Shown: positions 7,389 through 61,758, counted from the stretch's first letter. The stretch is DNA of 64,000 nt from Patescibacteria group bacterium (GCA_041670805.1 JBAXYM010000002.1:1309-65308), one strand, 5' to 3'. Translations and numbers: made by a program. Notes: a model not told the origin generated them from the letters alone.

Positions 7389-8948
7389 CTATTTCTCTAT
7401 CAAACTTCCCAAGACCATCGCCTTGGGCTTCGGAACGTTCAACACGTCCAGGAGCGTTGGAGCGACATTTCCCAAGACTCCGTTTTTATTAAGCCTGCAA
7501 TTTTTCTTCGTCAGACCCTTTTTCACAATGATAAAAGGCACCGGATTTTTGCTGTGCATTGTGGAAATATTTCCCGTCTCGGGATCCAGCATCTCGTCCG
7601 CATTGCCGTGATCGGCGGTAATAATCGCCGCGCCGCCGCTTGCCAAAACTTCGCTCACTACTTTTTCCAAACACTTGTCCAGAAATTCCACCGCGCAGAT
7701 GGTGGCTTTCAAGTTCCCCGTGTGCCCCACCATATCGGCATTGGCATAATTGACCAATATAAAATCATATATGCTGTGTTCAATATTGGAGACGATAACA
7801 TCCGTAATGTCTCCCGCGGACATTTCCGGTTTTTGGTCGTAAGTAAATACGTTTTTGGAGATAATTCTCTCGCGATTCTCCGAAGCGATCGGCTCGCTGT
7901 GCCCGCCATTGATGAAATAAGTTACGTGCGGATATTTTTCCGCTTCGGCGATATAGAGCTGTTTGAATTTTTGCAATACTTTAGGCAAAGTATCCTCCAC
8001 CGCCTGCGAGGCGTAAGCTATCTGCACCGGCAAATCCTGCCCGAAATCAGTCAACGTACACATAAAAACATTGTGCAGAATATGCTTGCGATTCTCGTAG
8101 TCTCGCATCTCCGGCGCGATCAGCATCTTGGTCATCTGACGCGCGCGATCCCCGCGTAAATTAAAAAATATCACCGCATCGTTGTCCTTGATCGTAGCGA
8201 CCGGTCTTCCTTCTTTGTCTACGATAGTGGTCGGAATTATAAACTCGTCAGTGAGTCCGTGGTTGTATGCGTCCTTTATCACCTGCTCGGCGGAATTTCC
8301 TCTGGCGCCTTCGCCCAAAACCATGGCGTCATAAGCGCGCTGCAGTCTGTCCCAATGTTTGACTCGATCCATCGCATAATATCTCCCGCCGATGCTCGCA
8401 ACTTTTCCAACTCCGATTTCTTTGATTTTGTCATTAAGTGCCCGCAAAAACACCAAAGAACTCTTCTCAAAAGCATCGCGACCGTCGGTGAAAAGATGAA
8501 GATAAATTTCCTTGACCCCGCTGTCTTTCGCCATCCGCATCAGAGCAAAGAGATGTTCGGGATCGCTGTGGGGACTGTCCGAATCCGACAAAAGCCCCAT
8601 CATATGCAAATCGGTCTTTTGCGTGAGTGCATGATTGATAGTCCGGCGAATACGCGGATTTTCGAAAAATTTTCCCGACTGGATATCCTCGTTTATGATT
8701 TGCGAATCTTGTTTGATAATTCTGCCCGCTCCGATATTGACATGCCCGGCCTCGCTCCCACTCCGTTCGTTCTCGCTCAATCCGACCGCCAACCCGGTGG
8801 CGTTGAGCTGTGTGTAAGGATATTTGGCGACCAGACTGTCGAAAAAGGGCTTCTTGGCAAGCTCAATTGCATTGCCTTCCGATTTGGGAGCCACCCCCCA
8901 GCCGTCCAGGATAATCAGCATATTTGTAGGTTTTTTCAATTCGGTCAT
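7389..8948 (-). CDS. gpmI: 2,3-bisphosphoglycerate-independent phosphoglycerate mutase (iPGM), copy 1.
   Basis: 519 aa with LIILDGWG at the N-terminus, the catalytic-Ser motif SGSEAGHVNIGAGR, and a C-terminal metal-binding domain (ADHGN). Confidence 0.9.
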   Translation of the reverse strand: MTELKKPTNMLIILDGWGVAPKSEGNAIELAKKPFFDSLVAKYPYTQLNATGLAVGLSENERSGSEAGHVNIGAGRIIKQDSQIINEDIQSGKFFENPRIRRTINHALTQKTDLHMMGLLSDSDSPHSDPEHLFALMRMAKDSGVKEIYLHLFTDGRDAFEKSSLVFLRALNDKIKEIGVGKVASIGGRYYAMDRVKHWDRLQRAYDAMVLGEGARGNSAEQVIKDAYNHGLTDEFIIPTTIVDKEGRPVATIKDNDAVIFFNLRGDRARQMTKMLIAPEMRDYENRKHILHNVFMCTLTDFGQDLPVQIAYASQAVEDTLPKVLQKFKQLYIAEAEKYPHVTYFINGGHSEPIASENRERIISKNVFTYDQKPEMSAGDITDVIVSNIEHSIYDFILVNYANADMVGHTGNLKATICAVEFLDKCLEKVVSEVLASGGAAIITADHGNADEMLDPETGNISTMHSKNPVPFIIVKKGLTKKNCRLNKNGVLGNVAPTLLDVLNVPKPKAMVLGSLIEK

Positions 8949-9080
8949 AATTTTTTATTTTTATCTTAATCAAATTTTTATCTTATATTGATGCATTATA
9001 CTAAATCACTTTCAAATTTTGTACAATATGGAAATCTGCACTAAGCTCTACAGGGATTGTCTTCGAAGAATTTTGCATTC

Positions 9081-9159
9081 GGATCACACCGGAAATGGTG
9101 TGAAATGCTGCACGAGAACGTTTTGTCCTGCGTTGTTCACACCATTTCTGGTGTGATCC
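9081..9159. repeat. Family-A palindromic element, copy 2 (core inverted relative to copy 1).
   Basis: Same arms, flanked by the outer stem TTTTGCATTC|...|G.AAAT. Confidence 0.9.
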
Positions 9160-9183
9160 GTAAATTCAGAATACATTATTTTT

Positions 9184-14787: not shown

Positions 14788-15031
14788 CCTTTATTCTAAA
14801 TTTTATTATACTCCATTTTTTTCAAAAAACCTAGAGGGAGTCTGCCTGACCCACCCACGCTTTGAGTCGCTTTTTTTAGCCAAATCAAAAGGTAAGATTA
14901 ATCTTTATCTGTCATTTATCTGTCATTCCGAAATTTCGGTACCCCGAAATATCCGGAATCCCGCAACTATACAAGGCAAGTATTGTGTTTCATTTTTATG
15001 AAAGCATTTTGCATTATGGATTCTAGATTTC

Positions 15032-15110
15032 GGATCACACCAGAAATGGCGTGAACCATGCAGGACAAAACGTTCTTGCGCAATATACCGCACCATTTCT
15101 GGTGTGGTCC
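15032..15110. repeat. Family-A element, copy 5 (nested in the family-B composite).
   Basis: Full arms. Confidence 0.9.
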
Positions 15111-15150
15111 GGATGCAAAAAGGCATTTTGGATTCTGGATTTCGGATTTC

Positions 15151-15230
15151 GGATCACACCAGAGATAGTGTGAACCACGCGGGATAAAACCGTTCTTGCG
15201 TAGCATTTCACACCATTTCTGGTGTGGTCC
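15151..15230. repeat. Family-A element, copy 6 (tandem with copy 5 inside the same family-B element).
   Basis: Full arms. Confidence 0.9.
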
Positions 15231-15417
15231 GAATACAAAGCCGGGACAGTTTTTTAGAAAGCAATAGAAAGGCGTCGGGAAGTGCAGGTGGATCAGGGAA
15301 TTCTGCCGATTGCCAATATTTTTATCTAGTCGAGACACAACAAAAAAACGACCATTACGAAAGATCACGCCTACTCCCCACAACAATCTTTTTTCCAACT
15401 TCACGCTTCGCCATCGG

Positions 15418-23534: not shown

Positions 23535-23666
23535 CTGACCCACCTGCACTTTAAATTACTTATTTTTTTGCTTTCTAAAGGCTGTCATCCCGGAATTTGC
23601 GCAGCAAATATCCGGGATCCCGTTGCTAAGCCGGTAGAAATAAAATACAATACTTGCCTTGCTCCG
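23535..23666. repeat. Family-B fragment (inverted orientation) joined to A copy 11.
   Basis: CTGACCCACCTGCACTTT...GCTTTCTAAAGGCTGTCATCCCGGAATTTGCGCAGCAAATATCCGGGATCCCG. Confidence 0.65.
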
Positions 23667-23683
23667 TTATTATCCTGAATTAT

Positions 23684-23762
23684 GGATCACACCAAAAATG
23701 GTGTGAACGATGCAGGACAAAACGTTTTTTGCGTAGCATTCACACCATTTCTGGTGTGATCC
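23684..23762. repeat. Family-A element, copy 11 (adjacent to a family-B fragment).
   Basis: Full arms. Confidence 0.9.
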
Positions 23763-23962
23763 ACAAATGCAGTCTGAACATTGCCGGTGTTTTCTAAGAC
23801 AGTAAGAACAGTCCTTTTGATTCCGTAAGAACTGTCCTTTCCCCCTGTATTATTCCGGTAAGCAATCCGACTTTTACTCAGACACAAAGCTTTTTCTCCT
23901 GAAATAAAACACGCTTTTTGTCATCCTCGTAAGGATCCCTTAAGCCACTTAATAACCCGGCC

Positions 23963-26188
23963 TTAATCATCAAACCTAATCACTTCTCCCGGCTTGATTT
24001 CTTTCGCTTCTTTTTTGGTTTCGCCTGCGGGAATGTTCTGCGTATCAATAATAGGGCTTTCCCTCTTCGGAATCGCAACCGGTTTTGCGATCCGGGGTTT
24101 CGGCAAAATAATTTCTTGTTTTTTGACAGCGGCAACGAAAACCTCCTCAATTTCGTTTATCCGCGTCACCTCGGGAGCAGACGGCTCGGAGACAATGGGA
24201 ATGGCAGGCGTTATTTTTTCATCCGTCCGCATTTCTTGAGGAACGGCATTTGCAGTTTCGCGACTTGCAATTTGTTTCCTCCGCCCCTCCGCCGCCAGCC
24301 GCTTCCGCTCGTAAAATTCAATCATTTTTTGCGGGTCGTAAGAAAATTTTTTCTGTTCGATTTTGGGCGCTACAGCCTCCGCACTTTCCTTCTTCAAAAC
24401 ATCAATGGGCTGTGTTTTCTTCTCCGCAACGGTTTCTCCGCTCTCCATCCGGACAGGTTCCTCTTTTGGCATCGCCCCTGGCACGACTTCCAGTGTCTGA
24501 GGATGAATCGAAGCAGGCGGAACAGAAGGAGCGACAACGGGCGCACTCTCCATTATCGGCGTAACAATTGAAGACTGGGATGGTGGCACTTCCGTTTCTT
24601 TCTGCAAAACCGGAGCCGCCGCCTCAACGGGCGCGGCAGGCTGCTGAACGATTTGAGGTTGTGAAAACTTCGCGCTCTCCGTCGGCTGCTGGCGGGCTTT
24701 CAAAAGACAATCCTTGCAGTATGTCGCACGCGCCGGATCCGGCTGAAAAGGAACTTTTATCGCCGTACCGCAAGTCGCGCAAACGGCATCCCACATCTCG
24801 CGATTATCCGTTTTTTCTTTTTTCTCTCCCGGCGCGGAAGGCTCGTTTCGCAATTCACCGCTCTCCTCGTCTTTGACATATCCCGACCAGCGCGCGACTT
24901 TGTCCTCCACTTCCTCTCTTTTCTTGGTGTAGCGCTCGCGCGATACTCGAATAATTTTTTCCGGATCGCTCTTTTCCGTAATTTCAATCGGCGGCAATGA
25001 AGTGGCGCTGAAAGCGTCGCCGGACACGCCATCGATCATCAGCTTCAAGTACATATCATATTTAGCCAAATTGACCAAATCATTCATCATAAAAATCGGC
25101 TCGAATTCCTTTTCCAAAAATTCCGCATCCGTGGCTCCCACCCGAAAACTGACAATGGTTCCGACATTGCCGAAGATGGCATCACTCACCGTCTCTTCCA
25201 ATTGACCGATATATTGGTGCGCCACGATCAGATCCAGACGATACTTGCGCGCCTCGGACAAAATTCCCGCGAAAGATTCCGTGGCGAAATTTTGGAACTC
25301 ATCGACGTAGAGATAAAAATCCTGACGCTCCTCTTCCGGCGTATCCACGCGCCCCATCGCCGCCAACTGGATCTTGGTGATAATCATCGCCCCCAGCAAG
25401 GCGCTGTAATCTTCCCCGATTCTTCCCTTGGAAAGATTAACGATAAGAATTTTGCGATTGTCCATTATATCGCGCATATCGATGGAAGAATGCGGCTGCG
25501 AAACGATGTTACGCACCAAGGAGCTCGACAAAAACTGCCCGACCTTGTTCTGAATCGGAGAAATCGCTTCAACCGTAAATTGTTTGGAATACTTCGTAAA
25601 TTCGTCCGTCCAGAAAGTCTTCACCACAGGATCGGAAATCTTGCTCACCACTTTCTTGCGATAATCGTCATCGATAAGCAGGCGCGGCACTCCCAAAAGA
25701 GTGCTGTCCGGATATTCCAAGAGCGCCAAAATCGTATTTCGCAAAAGATACTCCAGCCGAGGACCCCAAGAATCCGCCCAAATTTTCTTGAAAACTCCGA
25801 TGAGCCCCGAGGCGATGAGATGGCGATATTTTGGATCAACGTGCTCCATCACATTAAAAGCAATCGGATAATCTATATCCGCCGGATTGAAATATATGAC
25901 GTCGTTGACTCGGGACGGAGGAATAAAATTCAGAACCTCCTCCGCCAGATCTCCGTGCGGATCAACTACCGCCAGCCCCTGTCCGCTTTGAATATCGGAG
26001 ATGATCATATTCTCCAAAAGGGTGGTCTTGCCCATACCGGTCTTTCCAATTACATACATATGCCGGCGACGATCCTCCCGCTTGATGCCGAAGACATGTT
26101 CCTGTCCGCGAAAATTGGTCTTGCCGAAATAGGTAATATCGTTCTTTTCCATAATTTTGTTTATTTGAATATATCCCTCCATTGTCAC
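23963..26188 (-). CDS. VirD4/TraD/TrwB-family type IV coupling-protein-like ATPase, with no N-terminal TM, plus a C-terminal Zn-ribbon and a Pro/Ala-rich tail.
   Basis: Walker A in T4CP context (YVIGKTGMGKTTLL...GLAVVDPHGDL), Walker B (LYVDEFQNF) and the conserved VAHQYIGQL motif. The C-terminus has CATCG...CKDC and a low-complexity region. Confidence 0.55.
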   Translation of the reverse strand: MTMEGYIQINKIMEKNDITYFGKTNFRGQEHVFGIKREDRRRHMYVIGKTGMGKTTLLENMIISDIQSGQGLAVVDPHGDLAEEVLNFIPPSRVNDVIYFNPADIDYPIAFNVMEHVDPKYRHLIASGLIGVFKKIWADSWGPRLEYLLRNTILALLEYPDSTLLGVPRLLIDDDYRKKVVSKISDPVVKTFWTDEFTKYSKQFTVEAISPIQNKVGQFLSSSLVRNIVSQPHSSIDMRDIMDNRKILIVNLSKGRIGEDYSALLGAMIITKIQLAAMGRVDTPEEERQDFYLYVDEFQNFATESFAGILSEARKYRLDLIVAHQYIGQLEETVSDAIFGNVGTIVSFRVGATDAEFLEKEFEPIFMMNDLVNLAKYDMYLKLMIDGVSGDAFSATSLPPIEITEKSDPEKIIRVSRERYTKKREEVEDKVARWSGYVKDEESGELRNEPSAPGEKKEKTDNREMWDAVCATCGTAIKVPFQPDPARATYCKDCLLKARQQPTESAKFSQPQIVQQPAAPVEAAAPVLQKETEVPPSQSSIVTPIMESAPVVAPSVPPASIHPQTLEVVPGAMPKEEPVRMESGETVAEKKTQPIDVLKKESAEAVAPKIEQKKFSYDPQKMIEFYERKRLAAEGRRKQIASRETANAVPQEMRTDEKITPAIPIVSEPSAPEVTRINEIEEVFVAAVKKQEIILPKPRIAKPVAIPKRESPIIDTQNIPAGETKKEAKEIKPGEVIRFDD

Positions 26189-26263
26189 TGCAAACTCTCA
26201 ATCGCACAGCATCCTGAGGTCGAAGGATCTTGAGCTAAAATTCGCCCAGTTTTGTGTTCTTTC

Positions 26264-26821
26264 CTAGCTTCCATCAGCGGTTGCATCCCGATAACAGCCG
26301 GGGCAAACCCATGCATTATTACCACCACCACATCCGGAACCATAAGGACTGCCGAGAGTGGTCGCAGACGAAGCTCCATTGGATCCGACACAATAAAATT
26401 TTTGCGCCCCCGGCAACCAAACCAATATGGTAAATTTGGGGTAAGGCGCGCCCGCCGTATATGCAAAAACACGATATCCACTTGAAGATCCTATATTATT
26501 TACGATGCTTTTACATGCAACTCTAACACTTGCAGGATTAGAGGTGGAGCCGAATTGTGCATCACAAACCTGATTAGCAGTCCCCGCCCAATCAAAGAAA
26601 TAATATGCTGAATAATCCTGCGATGCGGTAGCGTCTATCTGCGCCGCTTTCATTATGGAATCTGCCGACTGCATTATCGCCGCATCCTTCGCTTTCAACC
26701 GCGCCCCATTTAGCGAAGTCATCGCAATAGTAGACAACACGCCGATAATGGAAATCACCACAAGAAGCTCAATGAGAGTAAAACCGTTTCTTGAATACCT
26801 TAAATATTGTTTTCTCTTCAT
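26264..26821 (-). CDS. Type IV pilin / pseudopilin (prepilin-type N-terminal cleavage/methylation domain).
   Basis: N-terminus RNGFTLIELLVVISIIGVL (class III signal peptide with the conserved Glu at +5). Confidence 0.8.
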   Translation of the reverse strand: MKRKQYLRYSRNGFTLIELLVVISIIGVLSTIAMTSLNGARLKAKDAAIMQSADSIMKAAQIDATASQDYSAYYFFDWAGTANQVCDAQFGSTSNPASVRVACKSIVNNIGSSSGYRVFAYTAGAPYPKFTILVWLPGAQKFYCVGSNGASSATTLGSPYGSGCGGGNNAWVCPGCYRDATADGS

Positions 26822-26896
26822 CTTTAATCTCTTATAAATTAATCTTTATCGGCACCGTTTGCACATTAAAAAACGCATCAACCGCAGACTAATATG

Positions 26897-28165
26897 TCAT
26901 ATTGGCAAAGTTGCCGGCGGCTTGCCTTTTTTGGCTTCCACTTTCGGCACCAGCGAGCCTCTGACTTCTTTGGTTGGAAAGTGATAGAGAGTCGCCAACT
27001 CGTCCGAAGTCATTATATAGCTTTTGAAATCCAAAGTTCTGTCCTTGTATTTCCGCAGTATCGCTCTTTTTTTTACTTTCTTTCTCGCGTCGGGAAAGAA
27101 ATAATAGGCGCTGGTTTTCGTTCTTGCGTCCGGTCGGATGCTATTCATCAGATCACTCCCAAACTGCGTAAAATACGCAAAGAACTGCGCGTTGGCTTTT
27201 GCTTTATTAAAAGCGCTCCTTTTTGCGGCATAAATATAGCGGATGTCGGTTTCAAACCCCGGTCTTTTCAGTTTTTCATCAATGGCATCAATAACCGCCC
27301 TTTCTCCCGAAGACAAGTGTAGCATCATACTCGGCAGATCATTGCTCTTTTTCTCCGCCGGCGCAGTTTCGCCCGTACTGAAAAAACCGGAGATCCCTTT
27401 CACCGCGCTGCTTAGCATCTCCGACCAAAATCCCGGTTTGGGTTCCGGCACCGCTCTTCCCGCTAATTTCAAAACTGTGTTTTGGGCGCTTTTCTTCCAC
27501 TCCTCGCTGGTAGGTCGCACCAGAATCTGAATCCAAAACTGTTCTCCCGGCCCCAGAGCGTTAACACCCTCCACGATGACACTCAGAGGATCAATAAACT
27601 CTCCCGAGGCGATATCTTCGAACTCCTTGTATGTCCGAATAGGATACGCATTGTCTTTGCTCAGTTTCATATCCGTCCCCCAAATATCATAGTCTTCATT
27701 GGGAATGTCGTCGGGAATGCTGGTGACGTATTCTTCCGCCTCTTGGATTTCCGCATCGGGATATTGCGCGTAAATATGAGATTTGACGAAAGGCAGATCT
27801 CCATCCATCACGCGGATATAAAAATGCACGTCACCCTCAAAGCTGACGATTTCAAAACTGAACCAAGACTCAACCACACCGTCGATATAGGTATCATAAA
27901 GAGTATCTATCGCGGCATCAAGACCGCTCGACAGCGCCGTAAAAAATTCCTCCATCGTCTTTGGTCTGATTTCCACTCCGGAAGGAACTTTGATTTCCAG
28001 AAGATGCCATTTTATATTTCTGATGTTTTTTTCCTGCACATAAACCGTCCAAAAATAATGGAACATCGGCCACATTACAAAAAAAGAAAAAAACCACCAA
28101 TATTCAAGGTAAACGCGGAGCGCCCCCTTGATGGATTCGTAGATGATAACGGAAAAACTTATCAT
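26897..28165 (-). CDS. Hypothetical membrane-anchored protein of unknown function, in the pilin/T4CP operon.
   Basis: 422 aa with an N-terminal hydrophobic region (WWFFSFFVMWPMFHYFWTV) and no recognisable catalytic motif. Short intergenic gaps to its neighbours (19 and 75 nt). Confidence 0.5.
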   Translation of the reverse strand: MISFSVIIYESIKGALRVYLEYWWFFSFFVMWPMFHYFWTVYVQEKNIRNIKWHLLEIKVPSGVEIRPKTMEEFFTALSSGLDAAIDTLYDTYIDGVVESWFSFEIVSFEGDVHFYIRVMDGDLPFVKSHIYAQYPDAEIQEAEEYVTSIPDDIPNEDYDIWGTDMKLSKDNAYPIRTYKEFEDIASGEFIDPLSVIVEGVNALGPGEQFWIQILVRPTSEEWKKSAQNTVLKLAGRAVPEPKPGFWSEMLSSAVKGISGFFSTGETAPAEKKSNDLPSMMLHLSSGERAVIDAIDEKLKRPGFETDIRYIYAAKRSAFNKAKANAQFFAYFTQFGSDLMNSIRPDARTKTSAYYFFPDARKKVKKRAILRKYKDRTLDFKSYIMTSDELATLYHFPTKEVRGSLVPKVEAKKGKPPATLPI

Positions 28166-28184
28166 ATTTTGTTTTATGCCTAAA

Positions 28185-29327
28185 TTATTTCAGGCGATAG
28201 ACTTTGTTGGGGAGTTTCTCAAAATTTTTCTTGTTCTGCAAGTTGAGAATGATCGTGTTTCTCTTGACCTGCCTTCTTCCCATAACTTCTTTGACGATTT
28301 CCTCCTGATCCATTGTCCCGCCCTTTTCTCTCATTACTTCCATTATAACATCAAGTACCACTCCAGGTCTATATCCCCATTCTTTGAGAGCGTAAATTCC
28401 GCGTCCGATCAGCACAAACCGTCCGTCCTTGATAACCTCATTGTGAACGGTCTGATTGTTGGTCTGCTTCTTGCTTGTCCAAAAGCTGTTGATTCTTTCG
28501 GTAATATCCGTAAAATGCAACGGCTTGTCTTCCCGCTTGAGCGCGAGATATGCCTTGTCCTTGACGCTCTTGGGATTGATGTGCGGCCATTTGTGATGCC
28601 CCCACTGTCCGAGAATATTTTCCAGCACCAATTTGTTTACATCCAAATAAGAACGGATCGACTCGTGAGAAAATTCATTGACCCCTTCCTTCTTCACGCT
28701 CTTTTGCGCCAGCACCACCAGATCGTCAAAGCTCAGACTCTTCTTGGTTTCCCGAAAATAATCTTCCAAAATCTCCAAAGTCTTTTCAAAAAGTTCCACG
28801 CCGCTTACTTCGTAGAAATAGAATTTTTTGTGGCTCGGGCTCTCTTTGGATTTTTTGATCGAATCGTCCAAATCCAAAAGCAAAACCACAATCTGCTTGT
28901 TCAGATCCTTGTCACCTTCCGCAAAAAGATTTTTAACTAATTTGTCTTCCCCCACCAATCCACCGCTTTCCTCGATGATTTTCTTCACATAATCAAAGAC
29001 TCTCTCCAAATCATATTTCCCGACGCTCGCCTTGAGCTTGGCAACCGATTCCGTTTCAATCTGTCTCACTCTCTCGCGCGTAATGTCGTAGTCCTTGCCG
29101 ATACTGTCCAGCGTCTGCGCGCCCTCTCCGTTCAGATTGTATCTTTTAATGATTATATTGCGTTGTCTGTCGTTCAATATTTTGAGCATTTCAAAAACCA
29201 GTTTGTTAAGGTCGACGTTTAAATCGCCTCTTTCTTCTAATTTCTTGTTCATATTATTTGTATAAGTTAACCCAATCTGCAAAAAATAGCACTGCCATAA
29301 TATATCACGATTAAAAAGGCGTGTCAA
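28185..29327 (-). CDS. DNA-binding protein combining a sigma-70 region-4-like HTH with a C-terminal HARE-HTH domain.
   Basis: LNDRQRNIIIKRYNLNGEGAQTLDSIGKDYDITRERVRQIETESVAKLK resembles sigma-70 region 4. The C-terminal DGRFVLIGRGIYALKEWGY resembles the HARE-HTH of the RNAP delta subunit (DGRF..L....WGLR.WY). The likely start is MNKKLEE at about 29250. Confidence 0.5.
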   Translation of the reverse strand: MTRLFNRDILWQCYFLQIGLTYTNNMNKKLEERGDLNVDLNKLVFEMLKILNDRQRNIIIKRYNLNGEGAQTLDSIGKDYDITRERVRQIETESVAKLKASVGKYDLERVFDYVKKIIEESGGLVGEDKLVKNLFAEGDKDLNKQIVVLLLDLDDSIKKSKESPSHKKFYFYEVSGVELFEKTLEILEDYFRETKKSLSFDDLVVLAQKSVKKEGVNEFSHESIRSYLDVNKLVLENILGQWGHHKWPHINPKSVKDKAYLALKREDKPLHFTDITERINSFWTSKKQTNNQTVHNEVIKDGRFVLIGRGIYALKEWGYRPGVVLDVIMEVMREKGGTMDQEEIVKEVMGRRQVKRNTIILNLQNKKNFEKLPNKVYRLK

Positions 29328-29361
29328 GATCTTGGGCTGAACATTTGTTATTATTTGTATC

Positions 29362-29500
29362 TGTCATTCCGGAATTTCGTTTCGTCGAAATATCCGGAAT
29401 CCCCGTGCCATACAAGACCAATCCTCGACTTGTTGTCTCTCGCCACCGACTTTGTCATCCCGAAAGGCGTACTCGCTTGATAAATCCGAGAAATATGCAA
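29362..29500. repeat. Family-B hairpin fragment plus a family-C-like TIR fragment, upstream of the pilin/T4CP operon.
   Basis: TGTCATTCCGGAATTTCGTTTCGTCGAAATATCCGGAATCCCCG, then TTTGTCATCCCGAAAGGCGTACTCGCTTGATAAATCCGAGAAATATGC. Confidence 0.55.
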
Positions 29501-29578
29501 GACTCTGTCAAGCTGGATCTTGAACCCCCCGTATCAAGCTGCCTAAACACCATTCCCGATATAAACCTCCATTTTTTT

Positions 29579-29810
29579 GCGGGAGCAGGTTTAAACCTGC
29601 TCCCTATGATTTTATTTCAAGACCGGCGATGTTTGTTTCTAACTGCCCATGCTGCTTTGTTACGATTAAATCAATAATAAAACATTCCGAAGCTTAAAAC
29701 CCTATGGAGCGGGTAAATACCCGCTCCCGCAAATACGGACACAAAAAAACAGCGGACCCGAAAATCCGCTATTTTTATCCTATACGCGGGAGCAGGTTTG
29801 AACCTGCTCC
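29579..29810. repeat. Cluster of three short family-G perfect-palindrome hairpins (GCGGGAGCAGGTTTAAACCTGCTCCC and variants).
   Basis: 29579-29604 GCGGGAGCAGGTTTAAACCTGCTCCC; 29706-29727 GGAGCGGGTAAATACCCGCTCC; 29786-29810 GCGGGAGCAGGTTTGAACCTGCTCC. Spacings of about 127 and 80 nt. Confidence 0.8.
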
Positions 29811-29897
29811 TTAATAAACACCTTCAAACTTTCACTTGAAGGCTTTTCCAAAACCGCAAAGGTTTGTGGGCTTGAAAAAAGTTAAGAAAAGAGTATT

Positions 29898-30284
29898 TTA
29901 CTCTTTTCTTTTTGGTTTTATAAGCATTTGGTCTATTCCCCAAAGATAGACCATCATTACCGATGCGCCAAGGACGGAGACAACTTTCCCGAGAAAAGGC
30001 ATCGACATGACCGCAACGATTTGTATTACCGTTGCTAATGTGAAAATCAAAGTCACATTCCACGCTACCTCTTTTCTGATGTTAGCTCTTTTTTCTTTTT
30101 CGAAGAGAAGCATGTCCATCAGGCAAAGAACGCTTTCAAGAAGTGCTGTCAGAATTATCGAATTTAGGATAATCCTGTTCACGATAATAATTTCTACCTC
30201 AAGCATGTAACCGGCCATATATAACAAGGCCGCAACACAAAAAACAAAAGCTACAAATTTTGGGATTCTTTTTATCATTGTCAT
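29898..30284 (-). CDS. Hypothetical small membrane protein (3-4 TM).
   Basis: 128 aa, hydrophobic throughout. Confidence 0.4.
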   Translation of the reverse strand: MTMIKRIPKFVAFVFCVAALLYMAGYMLEVEIIIVNRIILNSIILTALLESVLCLMDMLLFEKEKRANIRKEVAWNVTLIFTLATVIQIVAVMSMPFLGKVVSVLGASVMMVYLWGIDQMLIKPKRKE

Positions 30285-40748: not shown

Positions 40749-40826
40749 GGATCACACCAGAGATGGTGTGAATGCCACATAAAAACGTTCTATCCTGCAT
40801 GGTTCACACCATTTCTGGTGTGATCC
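40749..40826. repeat. Family-A element, copy 14.
   Basis: Full arms. Confidence 0.9.
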
Positions 40827-40891
40827 ATACTGCAAAATACAACATATAAAAAATAAAATACGACAAATTTTTTGATAAACCAAAAGAAAAA

Positions 40892-41146
40892 CGGAGTAGC
40901 AGGTGGAGTAGCATGGCTTCAGCCTGCGCCGCTGTCCAATGCAAAAAAGAACAAACGCATATACGTTCGTTCCATCAGCTTGGAACAACCGCGCAGGCTA
41001 AAGCCATGCTACTCCGAGAATTATTCCGTTTTAACATAAACAAAAGACGCGATAAATCGCGTCTCTACAAAGATACGGAAGGTTATTCCCGCATTGGACA
41101 GCAGCGCAGGCTGAAGCCTGCTACTCCGTTTGTCATGCTACTCCAC
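40892..41146. repeat. Family-D element, copy 2 (one full unit plus a partial second unit).
   Basis: GGAGTAGCAGGTGGAGTAGCATGGCTTCAGCCTGCGCC...CGCGCAGGCTAAAGCCATGCTACTCC, then ...GCATTGGACAGCAGCGCAGGCTGAAGCCTGCTACTCC. Confidence 0.85.
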
Positions 41147-48118: not shown

Positions 48119-48286
48119 GCGGAGCACGCAACCCGCGCGAAGTAGCATGGCGGAGTGGCAGGTGGAGTAGCGGGTGGAGTAGCATGGCTTTAGCCTGCGC
48201 GGTTGTCCCAAGTCGCAAAAACTTTCATATACATTCGTTCTCTCCGTATTGGACAGCGGCGCAGGCTAAAGCCGTGCTACTCCGCG
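48119..48286. repeat. Family-D element, copy 4 (left arm reiterated).
   Basis: AGTAGCATGGCGGAGTGGCAGGTGGAGTAGCGGGTGGAGTAGCATGGCTTTAGCCTGCGCGGTTGTCCCAAG...GGACAGCGGCGCAGGCTAAAGCCGTGCTACTCC. Confidence 0.85.
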
Positions 48287-49086
48287 GATGGTTTATTCAA
48301 TAAAACTTTATAAAAAATAAACAGCGGAATGCCGCAAAGCAGCACCCATTGCGTCAAGGTCAAACCGTAAAAACGCGCATCGCAAAAAGTCAAGTCGTCG
48401 CATCGCAAAAAGTCGGCGCCAAAACGAAAAATCGCATATGACGCGATAAAAGCCAAAAAAATATGTCCGTCGCGTTTCCGTTTTGATTTCAATTCGTATA
48501 TCACGCCCGATAAAAATATCAGAAACAATATTTCGTACGAAGCAACCGGATGTCGCAGCGTGCCGTCTGCAAATTCCATTCCCCACGGCAGCGTCGTGAT
48601 TTTGCCGATATGATCACCAATCAAAAAACAACCGAGGCGCACGAAAATGAGCGCGACGACAAAACCGGGGGTCAAAATATCAAACACTTTTTTAAAATCC
48701 CGCTTTTTGTTTTTCAAATAAAGCAGGCTCAAAACTCCGGTCAGCGCCACACCGCCCGCGAGCGAAAAACCGCCATGCACGCCGGTCAAAACGGCGACGC
48801 TTTTTTCCGGACTTGAAAGAAAATAAAAAATACGCCCGCCCACAATCATTCCCGCCAATGAAATAATCATCACGTCCCAGACTGTTTCATCCGCAAGGCG
48901 GGCCTTGCGCGCTTCCTTCAAAGAAATCGCAAGTGCCGCAACAAAACCGAGGGCGACAAAAAGCCCCCATACTTGCAAGGTGAGCGCGCCCAGGTTTATT
49001 TCAGTAAAAGAAAAATACGAAAGCATTTTTATAAAAACAACGGATAACGCGGAGTAGCATGGCTTTAGCCTGCGCGGTTGTCCCAA
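48277..49086 (-). CDS. lgt: Prolipoprotein diacylglyceryl transferase.
   Basis: RLGCFLIGDHIGKITTLPWGMEF matches the Lgt signature (RxGNFxNGELxG...LPWG). The first ~20 codons of the ORF overlap a family-D repeat; the true start is probably MLSYFSF at about 49026. Confidence 0.7.
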   Translation of the reverse strand: MGQPRRLKPCYSALSVVFIKMLSYFSFTEINLGALTLQVWGLFVALGFVAALAISLKEARKARLADETVWDVMIISLAGMIVGGRIFYFLSSPEKSVAVLTGVHGGFSLAGGVALTGVLSLLYLKNKKRDFKKVFDILTPGFVVALIFVRLGCFLIGDHIGKITTLPWGMEFADGTLRHPVASYEILFLIFLSGVIYELKSKRKRDGHIFLAFIASYAIFRFGADFLRCDDLTFCDARFYGLTLTQWVLLCGIPLFIFYKVLLNKPSAE

Positions 49087-55744: not shown

Positions 55745-56170
55745 CACTTGAACTTTGAATCACTTTTTTTGCCGAATTGAAAGGTAAAAAACAATCTTTT
55801 TTGTCATTCCGGAATTTCGGTACTCCGAAATATCCGGAATCCCGTAGCTATGCAAGGCAAGTATTGTATTTCATTTATATGAGAGTATCTTGCATTATGC
55901 ATTATGGACCACACCAGAAATGGTGTGAACCACGCGGGACAAAACGTTCTTGCATAATATTTCACACCATTTCTGGTGTGGTCCAAATGCAAAGCTGGAT
56001 CTCTGATTGATACAGATTTTGATGTCTGTTATAAAACCATATATTTGCGCATAACCCATTTTTATCGGCTTGGTAACGGGATCCCGGATATTTGCTACGC
56101 AAATTCCGGGATAACATCTCTTTAGAAAGCTATAGATAAGCGTCGGGAAGTGCAGGTGAAGTAGAATATG
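55745..56170. mobile_element. Family-B composite element with a nested extended family-A element (the best-preserved full copy).
   Basis: Left TIR CTTGACCCACTTGAACTTTGAA, both internal hairpins present, and a right end CTTTAGAAAGCTATAGATAAGCGTCGGGAAGTGCAGGTGAA. Confidence 0.75.
55906..55984. repeat. Family-A element, copy 15 (nested in a family-B element, with left and right extensions about 55882-56064).
   Basis: Full arms. The insertion is bounded by CATTTATA|...|TCGGCTTGG, whereas the A-less family-B copy at about 5180 reads CATTTTTAC|CGGCTTGG. Confidence 0.9.
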
Positions 56171-60189: not shown

Positions 60190-61758
60190 ATGCAAAAAGT
60201 AATTCTCGTCATATTGGACGGCTGGGGCATAAGCAGGGAGGTGGCGGGAAACGCCATCAGGAACGCCCGAACTCCCAATATGGATATGCTGATGTCGTAT
60301 TTTCCCAATACCGTTTTGCAGGCCTCGGGAATCTCCGTCGGGCTGCCTTGGGGCACGATGGGAAATTCCGAAGTCGGACACCTCACTATCGGCAGCGGAA
60401 AAGTGGTGTATCAGAGCCTGCCACGCGTGACCATTTCCATTCAAGACGGCTCTTTTTTCGAGAAAGAGGCGTTGCTGCAAAGTATAAAACACGCCCAAGA
60501 AAACAATTCCTGCATTCACCTCCTCGGACTGTTGAGCGCGGGCAGCGTCCACAGCCACATCAACCACCTTTACGCGCTCTTAAAGCTCTTGAAGATGAAA
60601 AATTTTCCCGCCGAAAAAGTGCTGATACACGTTTTTACTGACGGCAGAGATGTCGACCTTCACTCGGGAATAGATTACATCGCCGAGCTGGAAAAAAATA
60701 TCAAGACGGAGGGCTTCCCGGGAAGGATCGCCAGTGTGATGGGAAGATATTACGCGATGGATCGCAATGAGAATTGGGACCGAACGGCGAAGGCTTACGC
60801 TTGCATGGCAAAGGGCGAGGGTAAACAGGCGGATACGGCGCGCGCGGCGATACTGGAATCTTACGATCGAGAAAAAAGCGACGAATTCGTCGAACCGGTA
60901 ATCATCAAAGACGCAACGGGAAAAGTCAGCACTGTCGGATACGGAGACTCGGTTATACTTTTCAATATCCGCGAAGACCGCGCCCGGCAAATCACCAAAG
61001 CGTTTGTCCTTGACGATTTCAATCATTTTGCAAGGGGAGAAAAAATAGAGGGACTGAATTTTACCACAATGATAGAATATGAAAAAGATTTGCCCGTAAA
61101 TGTGGTTTTTCCTCCCGAGAAAGTAGAAGCGCCTCTGGGCAAAATGTTAAGCGTAGCGGGAGTAAAACAACTCCGAATTGCGGAAACGGAAAAATATGCC
61201 CACGTCACTTACTTCTTCAACGGCGGCGAAGAGAAGCCTTACCCCGGAGAATTTCGAATGCTCGTCCCTTCTCCCAATGTCGAAAGCTACGACCAGACGC
61301 CTCGAATGAGCGCCGAAGAAGTAACCAATAATGTCATCGGGGCGATAGAAGGAAAAGAATACGGTTTTATTTTGGTAAATTTCGCCAACCCCGATATGGT
61401 CGGGCACACGGGAAATATCAAAGCGGCAATAGAAGCGATAGAATTTGTGGATGGATGCGTCGGAAGTATTTATAAGAAAGCCGCAGAAAATGATACAGTG
61501 CTAATTGTAACCGCCGATCACGGCAACGCGGAGGAAATGATCAACACCCGCACCGGCGAAATACTCACCGAACACACCACCAATCCCGTACCTTTCATTT
61601 TGGCAGACCCCCGCCGTCGATTTGAATATCCGCAAAAGCTCGGGCAGAGCAAAGACATAAACGGAATATTGAGTGACATCGCCCCCACGATTTTGGATAT
61701 TATGGAAATCCCCGAACCGAAAGATATGACGGGAACGAGTTTGTTGAGAAGTATGTAA
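60190..61758 (+). CDS. gpmI: 2,3-bisphosphoglycerate-independent phosphoglycerate mutase (iPGM), copy 2 (divergent paralog).
   Basis: VILVILDGWG, GNSEVGHLTIGSGK catalytic Ser, HVFTDGRD, ADHGN. Confidence 0.85.
   Translation: MQKVILVILDGWGISREVAGNAIRNARTPNMDMLMSYFPNTVLQASGISVGLPWGTMGNSEVGHLTIGSGKVVYQSLPRVTISIQDGSFFEKEALLQSIKHAQENNSCIHLLGLLSAGSVHSHINHLYALLKLLKMKNFPAEKVLIHVFTDGRDVDLHSGIDYIAELEKNIKTEGFPGRIASVMGRYYAMDRNENWDRTAKAYACMAKGEGKQADTARAAILESYDREKSDEFVEPVIIKDATGKVSTVGYGDSVILFNIREDRARQITKAFVLDDFNHFARGEKIEGLNFTTMIEYEKDLPVNVVFPPEKVEAPLGKMLSVAGVKQLRIAETEKYAHVTYFFNGGEEKPYPGEFRMLVPSPNVESYDQTPRMSAEEVTNNVIGAIEGKEYGFILVNFANPDMVGHTGNIKAAIEAIEFVDGCVGSIYKKAAENDTVLIVTADHGNAEEMINTRTGEILTEHTTNPVPFILADPRRRFEYPQKLGQSKDINGILSDIAPTILDIMEIPEPKDMTGTSLLRSM

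Follow-up and report, generated by a model that had tools for sequence, protein, structure and literature searches.

A putative two-piece membrane ATPase of the VirD4/VirB4 superfamily in a conserved chromosomal gene unit of Patescibacteria

Introduction

What does a coupling-protein-like ATPase do on a patescibacterial chromosome, and which of its neighbours does it work with? The question is raised by a group of genes at positions 23963-29327 on the minus strand of a 64,000-nt stretch of DNA from a Patescibacteria group bacterium (GCA_041670805.1 JBAXYM010000002.1:1309-65308; hereafter the window, to which all coordinates refer). The initial annotation placed four co-directional open reading frames (ORFs) there, all of which were present, and assigned them to a type IV coupling protein (T4CP)-like ATPase, a type IV pilin, a membrane protein and a DNA-binding protein, which were read as parts of one apparatus. 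Orphan T4CP homologues are already known in Patescibacteria: a survey from 2025 by Quinonero-Coronel et al. counted 5,713 VirD4-type T4CP homologues in 2,918 genomes, just 148 of which had virB4 nearby (PMC12102498). The same survey found almost no relaxases, placed the MPF-FATA-like type IV secretion systems (T4SS) of the group usually near dnaA, and left the role of the T4CP homologues open (PMC12102498). The window ATPase, with no virB4 or relaxase gene seen in the 64 kb around it, probably belongs to these orphans. No membrane partner, split or fusion relation, or sigma-like neighbour was described in the survey, and besides it and one 2025 review no description of the orphan proteins was found. 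A full-text literature search for DUF8128, the family of the membrane protein in the window, returned no paper that mentions it; the membrane partner, the split/fusion relation and the sigma-like partner appear undescribed. The balance of our evidence tips slightly towards a vertically inherited chromosomal operon of Paceibacteria-type Patescibacteria, the core of which would be a two-piece membrane ATPase of the VirD4/VirB4 superfamily that is either T4SS-coupling or exapted.

Two separately encoded halves of a putative ATPase

The two genes that carry the argument, and the features within them, were as follows.

26897..28165, minus strand: DUF8128 (PF26449) membrane subunit, 422 amino acids (aa), from homology and predicted fold
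28046-28102, minus strand: Trp/Phe-rich membrane segment of DUF8128, residues about 22-40, conserved
23963..26152, minus strand: T4CP-like (VirD4/TrwB-type) soluble P-loop ATPase, 729 aa, from the conserved ATG and Pfam
26024-26047, minus strand: Walker A GKTGMGKT of the ATPase, invariant in the family alignment
24707-24781, minus strand: CxxC-x17-CxxC zinc finger of the ATPase (zf_Tbcl_2, residues 463-497)
23966-23995, minus strand: extreme C-terminal KPGEVIRFDD of the ATPase, conserved

Comparison with other lineages suggested that DUF8128 and the ATPase together correspond to a single protein that is split here, a membrane-anchored ATPase of the VirD4/VirB4 superfamily, because they occur as a single polypeptide in a Bacillota Tcp-type plasmid, in phage G and in a paralog from Patescibacteria. 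The profile phrog_5156 (824 positions) contained DUF8128 at 77-359 (2e-17) and the ATPase at 387-805 (4e-63). On the Shouchella clausii plasmid NZ_CP012476, the 883-aa 'DUF87' protein WP_248290882 was a fused DUF8128-ATPase, with residues 47-311 aligned to the DUF8128 profile (hhalign 97.6%, E 3e-12) and residues 326-704 aligned to the window ATPase (BLASTP, 29% identity, 1e-43). The fused gene was followed by those of a Replic_Relax relaxase, TcpC, TcpE and an AAA_10 VirB4-type ATPase, and therefore occupied the coupling-protein position of a Tcp-type conjugation locus with a separate VirB4. In all fused forms the junction came after the conserved EELATLxHFPT ... PPxxLP, which was the exact split point of the window genes. 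The fused proteins and the window pair had the same module order, whereas the window version was split and lay among housekeeping genes; the neighbours of the fused forms were Replic_Relax and Tcp-type transfer genes on the plasmid and a VirB4-like gene in the phage. By these alignments and the fold prediction described below, the unknown membrane protein of the initial annotation would be the N-terminal half of the ATPase in detached form. The initial annotation had missed this relation, together with the fusion in other lineages and the predicted likeness to the VirB4 N-terminal domain.

Two of the fused forms came with context of their own (loci used for comparison are cited by L numbers). 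In Bacillus phage G (L084, JN638751), gp156 (90859-93336), annotated as 'MsbA-like' and included in phrog_5156, was the fused DUF8128-T4CP-like protein, and the adjoining gp155 (89194-90843) was VirB4/TraG-P-loop-like, which gives a T4SS-type ATPase pair in a jumbo phage. In a Patescibacteria genome (L078:1-2352, contig CAWBLF010000003.1), a fused DUF8128-ATPase paralog of at least 783 aa was found, and a second copy, 7.6 kb downstream, was the stand-alone sigma-like / DUF8128 / YceG arrangement.

The 422-aa protein had been regarded as without recognisable domain, a description overtaken by newer Pfam, in which it corresponds to PF26449 (DUF8128). The assignment was made through homologues at 41-98% identity with precomputed annotation; the local Pfam copy gave no match and apparently does not hold that model. 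The family comprised 2,917 clusters at 50% identity (E <= 1e-3), nearly all of 400-550 aa, and among species-representative genomes it occurred only on patescibacterial-looking contigs, some of whose record titles were labelled otherwise. A single Trp/Phe-rich segment near residues 17-41 was present in 31/31 aligned members; its Wimley-White octanol free energy was -13 to -22 kcal/mol, and the Kyte-Doolittle scale underrates it. EELATLxHFPT and the tail ...KKGKPPxxLPI were the conserved motifs, and the family has no P-loop. When the predicted model of DUF8128, which was of moderate confidence, was searched with Foldseek, the top 13 matches were all TrwK chains (E 2e-5 to 2e-3), the fold searches giving no residue ranges. 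Structure 4ag5, a VirB4 consisting of the C-terminal domain only, was in the same fold library and was not among the matches, so the match is attributed to the N-terminal domain of VirB4. The cytoplasmic domain of DUF8128 is thus predicted to adopt a VirB4-N-terminal-domain-like fold. In VirB4 this domain is embedded in the inner membrane, where the hexamer is anchored by it through contacts with VirB3 and VirB8 (PMC12857230). At the sequence level DUF8128 matched no PDB chain at E <= 10, and its identity with the TrsD family found no support (hhalign probability 0.2 against pGO1 TrsD, a single-sequence template of limited sensitivity).

For the ATPase, the sequence favours the T4CP family. 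The domain calls of the initial annotation for this protein, the pilin and the sigma-r4/HARE-HTH protein were borne out by Pfam and NCBIfam matches, and all of its ATPase motifs (GKTGMGKTT, VVDPHGDL, VDEFQNF and VAHQYIGQL) were found. The family check by hidden Markov models (HMMs) that it had proposed gave the T4CP-type Pfam matches TrwB_AAD_bind (4e-11; 42.7 bits against a cut-off of 20.5), T4SS-DNA_transf (1.5e-6; 27.8 against 20.1) and TraG-D_C (9e-6; 26.0 against 22), next to DUF87 (3e-6) and zf_Tbcl_2. NCBIfam gave partial TraD/VirD4-type matches and the CxxC-x17-CxxC domain, and VirB4_plasma reached just 20 bits (cut-off 590). In the PDB, TrwB and DotL were the only matches, both to the single sequence and to the profile. 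PF10412 was present on all 120 listed homologues, and AAA_10 and CagE_TrbE_VirB had no Pfam match on the ATPase and were on none of the 120. With hhalign, the ATPase profile aligned with pGO1 TrsE (VirB4) and TrsK (T4CP) just over P-loop or Walker-B stretches. Walker A and Walker B (YVDEF), both intact in the window ATPase, one glutamine and the four zinc-finger cysteines were invariant in the family alignment. The start was most likely the ATG at 26152 (MEKNDITYF), which gives 729 aa against 741 aa for the whole ORF, because this start and the upstream GGAGG were kept in relatives. With the revised start the spacer between pilin and ATPase was 111 nt; the tight co-directional layout stood, whereas the claimed spacing of 19-75 nt did not.

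At the N-terminus of the ATPase, the reported absence of a transmembrane (TM) anchor was confirmed, no strongly hydrophobic segment being detected and the Kyte-Doolittle maximum (1.41) lying within the ATPase core. At the C-terminus, the zinc finger was present as described (CxxC-x17-CxxC), and the tail was Pro/Glu/Ala-rich (Pro/Ala-rich in the initial annotation). A terminal motif [KP]GE[VI][VI][KR]F(D) occurred in about 30/45 ATPase homologues (L001-L043), preceded by an unalignable tail of ~40 to 250 residues, and it looks like a docking peptide for a partner. Docking on the sigma-like protein was not supported, the motif being found in lineages without an adjacent sigma-like gene and missing in some that have one.

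Compared with the T4CPs (VirD4, TrwB, TraD, DotL), the window ATPase has the same P-loop motor by sequence and a putative helical insertion between the Walker motifs, where its AlphaFold2 (AF2) model had helices at residues 119-243 (a poor model, pLDDT 61). Its tail recalls the variable C-terminal extension of TraD and DotL. T4CPs carry the N-terminal TM domain in the same chain, whereas the window ATPase does not and would have its anchor in trans on DUF8128; their anchor is of two helices, and the window pair has a VirB4-N-terminal-domain-like module in its place. It also differs from them by the added zinc finger, by being core chromosomal and by having no relaxase or T4SS genes nearby. With regard to VirB4/TrwK of R388, the DUF8128 model resembles the N-terminal domain, whereas the ATPase is closer to the T4CPs by sequence. 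pGO1 sets a precedent: there the N-terminal module, TrsD, has a gene of its own immediately before that of its ATPase, TrsE. The protein may therefore be described as T4CP-like in its motor and C-terminal extension and, from the predicted fold, as VirB4-like in the N-terminal module encoded in trans.

The gene unit and its chromosomal setting

To place the pair in its neighbourhood, 80 species-representative loci retrieved with DUF8128 by two peptide patterns, which is a biased sample, were compared; ORFs were called with our own caller and partners located by phmmer. The ATPase lay directly downstream of DUF8128 in 43 of 73 evaluable loci; immediately upstream, in the same orientation, the sigma-like gene was found in 55 of 69. 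Both sides could be evaluated in 63 loci, of which 27 had both partners, 23 the sigma-like gene only, 8 the ATPase only and 5 neither. The next commonest neighbour family of DUF8128 (SecD/SecF) occurred in just 30/83 loci. Two arrangements were found, SecDF / sigma-like / DUF8128 / ATPase followed by cysK or pgk, and LeuS / sigma-like / DUF8128 / YceG / MnmA; one genome with the LeuS-type arrangement had a fused paralog 7.6 kb upstream. When sigma-like homologues were sampled from long contigs, DUF8128 was immediately downstream in 3/3. DUF8128 is the hub of the neighbourhood, since its pairings with the sigma-like gene and with the ATPase persist across different flanks. The conserved unit is thus made of three of the four genes, the sigma-like gene, DUF8128 and the ATPase. 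Of the quartet whose conservation had been put forward for checking, the pilin is the member that dropped out, and the neighbourhood data agree with an ATPase whose membrane-protein partner and sigma-r4/HARE-HTH neighbour are both conserved.

In L002/L003/L027/L028 and in L034/L035, DUF8128 had neither of its two partners within 10 kb. A DUF348/G5/DPBB_1 protein was encoded downstream of it in the first four loci, and a ROK kinase came before it in L002/L003. These stand-alone genes may have partners or a role beyond this ATPase.

The window is a housekeeping region that holds genes of glycolysis, ATP synthase, the thioredoxin system, trigger factor, ClpP and NusA, with shared synteny in the flanks, including cysK, and a uniform GC content. 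Against the same genome set the ATPase was the locally best-conserved gene: its identity to L001 was 77%, against 51-57% for TPI, CysK, TrxR, DUF8128 and the sigma-like protein, and to more distant genomes it was 59-62%, against 44-45% for PGK. No relatives of DUF8128 were found in the viral contigs of IMG/VR, and no relaxase or T4SS mating-pair genes were seen in the window or within 10 kb in the flanks of Pfam-annotated relatives. VirB3, VirB6 and VirB8 homologues were not among the neighbours (SecDF, LeuS, CysK, PGK, YceG, ATP synthase), by which the locus differs from VirB4 systems. The ATPase is therefore a core chromosomal gene and not part of a mobile element, because it is more conserved than the neighbouring glycolytic enzymes and its flanks are housekeeping genes.

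The sigma-like gene and its promoter

The first gene of the unit and its control region contained the following features.

29299..29327, minus strand: sigma-70-type promoter with extended -10 (TTGACA, 17 nt, TGaTATATT), heading the unit
28185..29252, minus strand: sigma-like DNA-binding protein, 355 aa, from Pfam, PDB search and family alignment
about 29031-29186, minus strand: primary-sigma-type region 4 (Sigma70_r4, residues 23-74 of 355)
about 28377-28568, minus strand: HARE-HTH, Pfam match

Pfam matched Sigma70_r4 (8e-13) and HARE-HTH (2e-9) in this ORF, which was called as 380 aa before its start was revised, and the HARE-HTH was above the cut-off of the NCBIfam domain of the RNA polymerase (RNAP) delta subunit (47.1 bits against 42). 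The family alignment gave an architecture of region 4, a middle region, HARE-HTH and a conserved C-terminal region. Matches in the PDB were restricted to region 4 of RpoS/SigA/RpoD, the type to which its region 4.2 was closest, and sigma regions 2 and 3 were not present, Pfam, NCBIfam and PDB searches matching region 4 only. As region 2 is missing, its domain content indicates that the protein cannot be a sigma factor. It shares the HARE-HTH with the RNAP delta subunit, and the NCBI name is 'sigma factor-like helix-turn-helix DNA-binding protein'; most likely it is a DNA-binding regulator or adaptor. A function of DUF8128 as its anti-sigma factor was set aside given the VirB4-N-terminal-domain-like fold and the fusion to the ATPase.

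The promoter at 29299-29327 scored 11/12 plus the TG in the scan. The gene most likely starts at ATG 29252 (355 aa) and not at TTG 29327, because that TTG belongs to the -35 hexamer of the conserved promoter and homologues are 342-355 aa long. TTGACA-17-TG-TATA(C/T)T preceded the homologous gene in most loci of the close clade, and a weaker version was found in distant loci. A block of ~45 nt that includes the promoter was identical in L088 and L007, where the surrounding DNA had diverged. Primary-sigma-type region 4 reads TTGACA, and the perfect TTGACA in its own promoter is compatible with autoregulation of the sigma-like protein, which is speculation. On the minus strand no terminator-like site was found between the genes, and the only sites before 23545-23528 were within the ATPase ORF.

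The same ~45-nt block (29255-29330, minus strand; L088:7390-7440; L007:8840-8890) spans the -35, the extended -10 and the next ~20 nt (CTTGACAC..CTTTTTAATCGTGATATATTATGGCAGT.CTATTT). It was 100% identical in the three genomes, the encoded proteins being just 74-86% identical, which hints at an operator or a 5'-leader element besides the promoter.

The pilin gene

The remaining gene of the four lies between DUF8128 and the ATPase.

26264..26821, minus strand: type IV prepilin gene, 185 aa (N_methyl, IV_pilin_GFxxxE)

Its product had the class III signal peptide G|FTLIELLVV (N_methyl 1e-8, TIGR02532 4e-9), and a prepilin regular expression found no other prepilin-like ORF in the window. None of the 80 related loci had such an ORF between the DUF8128 and ATPase genes. 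The closest comparison was L088, whose ATPase was 93% identical and which had the ATP synthase on the opposite strand, the sigma-like gene, DUF8128, the ATPase, cysK and thioredoxin, and no pilin. The spacer between DUF8128 and the ATPase was ~188 nt in L088 and L004, both without the pilin, and in L087 (DUF8128 75% identical) the ATPase began 57 nt past DUF8128. In other lineages this spot was taken by unrelated inserts, namely a cupin-like gene, a TM protein or a block from a ROK kinase to MurJ. The pilin is therefore a recent lineage-specific insertion into the DUF8128-ATPase spacer and not a member of the unit. The initial annotation had argued from a T4CP paired with a pilin, and this argument fails because the pilin is not at this position in relatives, which removes a tempting hypothesis. 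Its statement that no PilB/PilC/VirB4-like ORF lies nearby held in so far as none was seen in the 64 kb when ORF translations were read and the prepilin pattern was applied, which is not a full HMM scan; in the same reading of the window, the pilin gene was not seen to be linked to PilB, PilC or PilD.

Function and alternative explanations

With gene content, fusion and split, fold similarity, conservation statistics and housekeeping context computed, we infer the oligomeric state, physical docking, substrate and T4SS link in the following mechanism. The sigma-like gene would be co-transcribed with DUF8128 and the ATPase from the conserved strong promoter. DUF8128 would provide a membrane segment and a VirB4-N-terminal-domain-like scaffold, which the ATPase does not have, and the ATPase would provide the T4CP-type motor together with a treble-clef zinc finger and, as its tail, a disordered stretch that closes with the conserved short motif. 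TrwB, DotL and VirB4 form hexamers, and a hexamer of the ATPase may dock on membrane-bound DUF8128, which would take the place of the N-terminal module of the fused proteins. ATP would then drive the handover of a substrate, either nucleic acid or protein, to a channel in the membrane; by analogy, this would most likely be the MPF-FATA-like T4SS of Patescibacteria, encoded at another place in the genome. Since a conjugative plasmid has the fused homologue as its coupling protein and MPF-FATA-like T4SS occur in Patescibacteria, the pair would most economically be read as the coupling ATPase of a patescibacterial T4SS, or as its exapted descendant.

Several points weigh against this reading. Neither T4SS channel genes nor VirB4 nor a relaxase was seen in the window, so the link to T4SS is drawn by analogy only. 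DUF8128 and the sigma-like gene were present with no ATPase within 10 kb in 23 of the 63 fully evaluable genomes, and DUF8128 may for this reason have a role independent of the ATPase. The loci behind these counts came from two peptide patterns and are biased accordingly. In S. epibionticum the T4CP homologue, which may or may not belong to this family, was reported to be non-essential and the T4SS genes to be essential, and exaptation was raised (PMC12102498).

As an alternative, the unit would be a vertically inherited core nucleic-acid translocation system of Paceibacteria that is independent of T4SS: an exapted coupling protein with a VirB4-type N-terminal module, acting for example in DNA uptake, chromosome handling or nucleic-acid export to the host. 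The sigma-like protein would then be an adaptor that recognises either DNA or RNA polymerase, and not just a regulator. We regard this as rather unlikely, both for the exapted translocase and for the system with its adaptor. The very high conservation, the housekeeping context, the zinc finger, the conserved DNA-binding neighbour and the lack of a relaxase or T4SS nearby all agree with it, and exaptation has explicitly been left open (PMC12102498). However, there is no direct evidence of the substrate, in many genomes no ATPase gene adjoins the retained pair of DUF8128 and sigma-like gene, and the C-terminal motif of the ATPase does not track the sigma-like gene. If true, the system would represent a living intermediate between the VirB4 and VirD4 architectures. 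A further alternative to a coupling protein is a divergent split VirB4, the main ATPase of T4SS, in which DUF8128 would be the N-terminal domain and the downstream gene the ATPase domain, like TrsD and TrsE of pGO1. This is more doubtful still, since the sequence matches were to TrwB, DotL and TraD, with PF10412 throughout the 120 homologues and AAA_10 and CagE_TrbE_VirB on none, and since a separate VirB4-type ATPase coexists with the fused protein in both the plasmid and phage G. Nor was there sequence similarity between DUF8128 and TrsD, or a VirB3, VirB6 or VirB8 gene adjacent to the pair.

Least credible are the two explanations that either take in all four genes or make the locus a foreign one. 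A single apparatus of T4CP-like translocase, type IV pilin and regulator for DNA uptake, DNA transfer or host contact would fit the tight co-directional spacing and the absence of terminator-like sites between the genes, and there are known cases of a T4CP cooperating with a type IV pilus, for example in PAPI-1-type elements (PMC12857230). The comparative data largely refute it: the pilin was absent here from all 80 related genomes, L088 had identical synteny and only the 188-nt spacer, unrelated genes occupied the same spot elsewhere, and no genes for pilus assembly were noticed in the window. It is equally hard to credit that the locus is what remains of an integrated element, conjugative or phage-like, or that it encodes an ATPase of anti-phage defence (mad8, HerA or DptH type). 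The likeness to PADLOC mad8 and PHROG entries and, by fold, to DptH was put down to the shared ATPase fold, and no integrase, relaxase, methylase or nuclease partners and no viral homologues (IMG/VR) accompanied it; the GC content did not deviate, synteny was kept across many species, and the ATPase exceeded its metabolic neighbours in conservation.

With the coupling ATPase as the preferred reading, an orphan ATPase gains an anatomy, namely a DUF8128 membrane subunit, a Rosetta-stone fusion and a sigma-like partner with a conserved promoter. A likely role is proposed for a large domain previously without assigned function, and the architecture bears on the divergence of VirD4 and VirB4. Testable pairings are offered by the DUF8128-ATPase complex, by the DNA target of the sigma-like protein and by the partner of the ATPase C-terminal motif.

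Other features of the window

Palindromic repeat families were scattered over most intergenic regions of the window, D1 with 8 copies (9072-63148) and D11 with 4. The initial annotation had taken repeat clusters as the bounds of the four-gene module; these flanking clusters are real, but since the same families are window-wide, the repeats do not delimit it, and this role was ruled out. Rfam and tRNA scans of the region gave no matches.

The repeats resemble repetitive extragenic palindromes (REP) or miniature inverted-repeat transposable elements (MITE) and fill most intergenic regions, with 5-7 copies each of D2-D6 and 8 of D1. Examples lie at 9072-9175, 15001-15252, 23574-23785, 29353-29418, 29567-29827, 40749-41128, 48158-48289 and 55793-56158. 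Some of them yield spurious small ORFs with a common '...GSHQKWCE...' peptide, and so dense a set of intergenic repeats is notable in a small patescibacterial genome. In the 1.5-kb repeat-rich gap between the sigma-like promoter and atpB, a 128-aa ORF with several hydrophobic stretches (29898-30284, minus strand) had no counterpart cluster among the comparison loci (singleton c619) and is a candidate gene only. Two ORFs of ~520 aa with similar ...ILDGWG... N-termini, at 7389-8948 (minus strand) and 60190-61758 (plus strand), resembled by eye paralogous cofactor-independent phosphoglycerate mutases.

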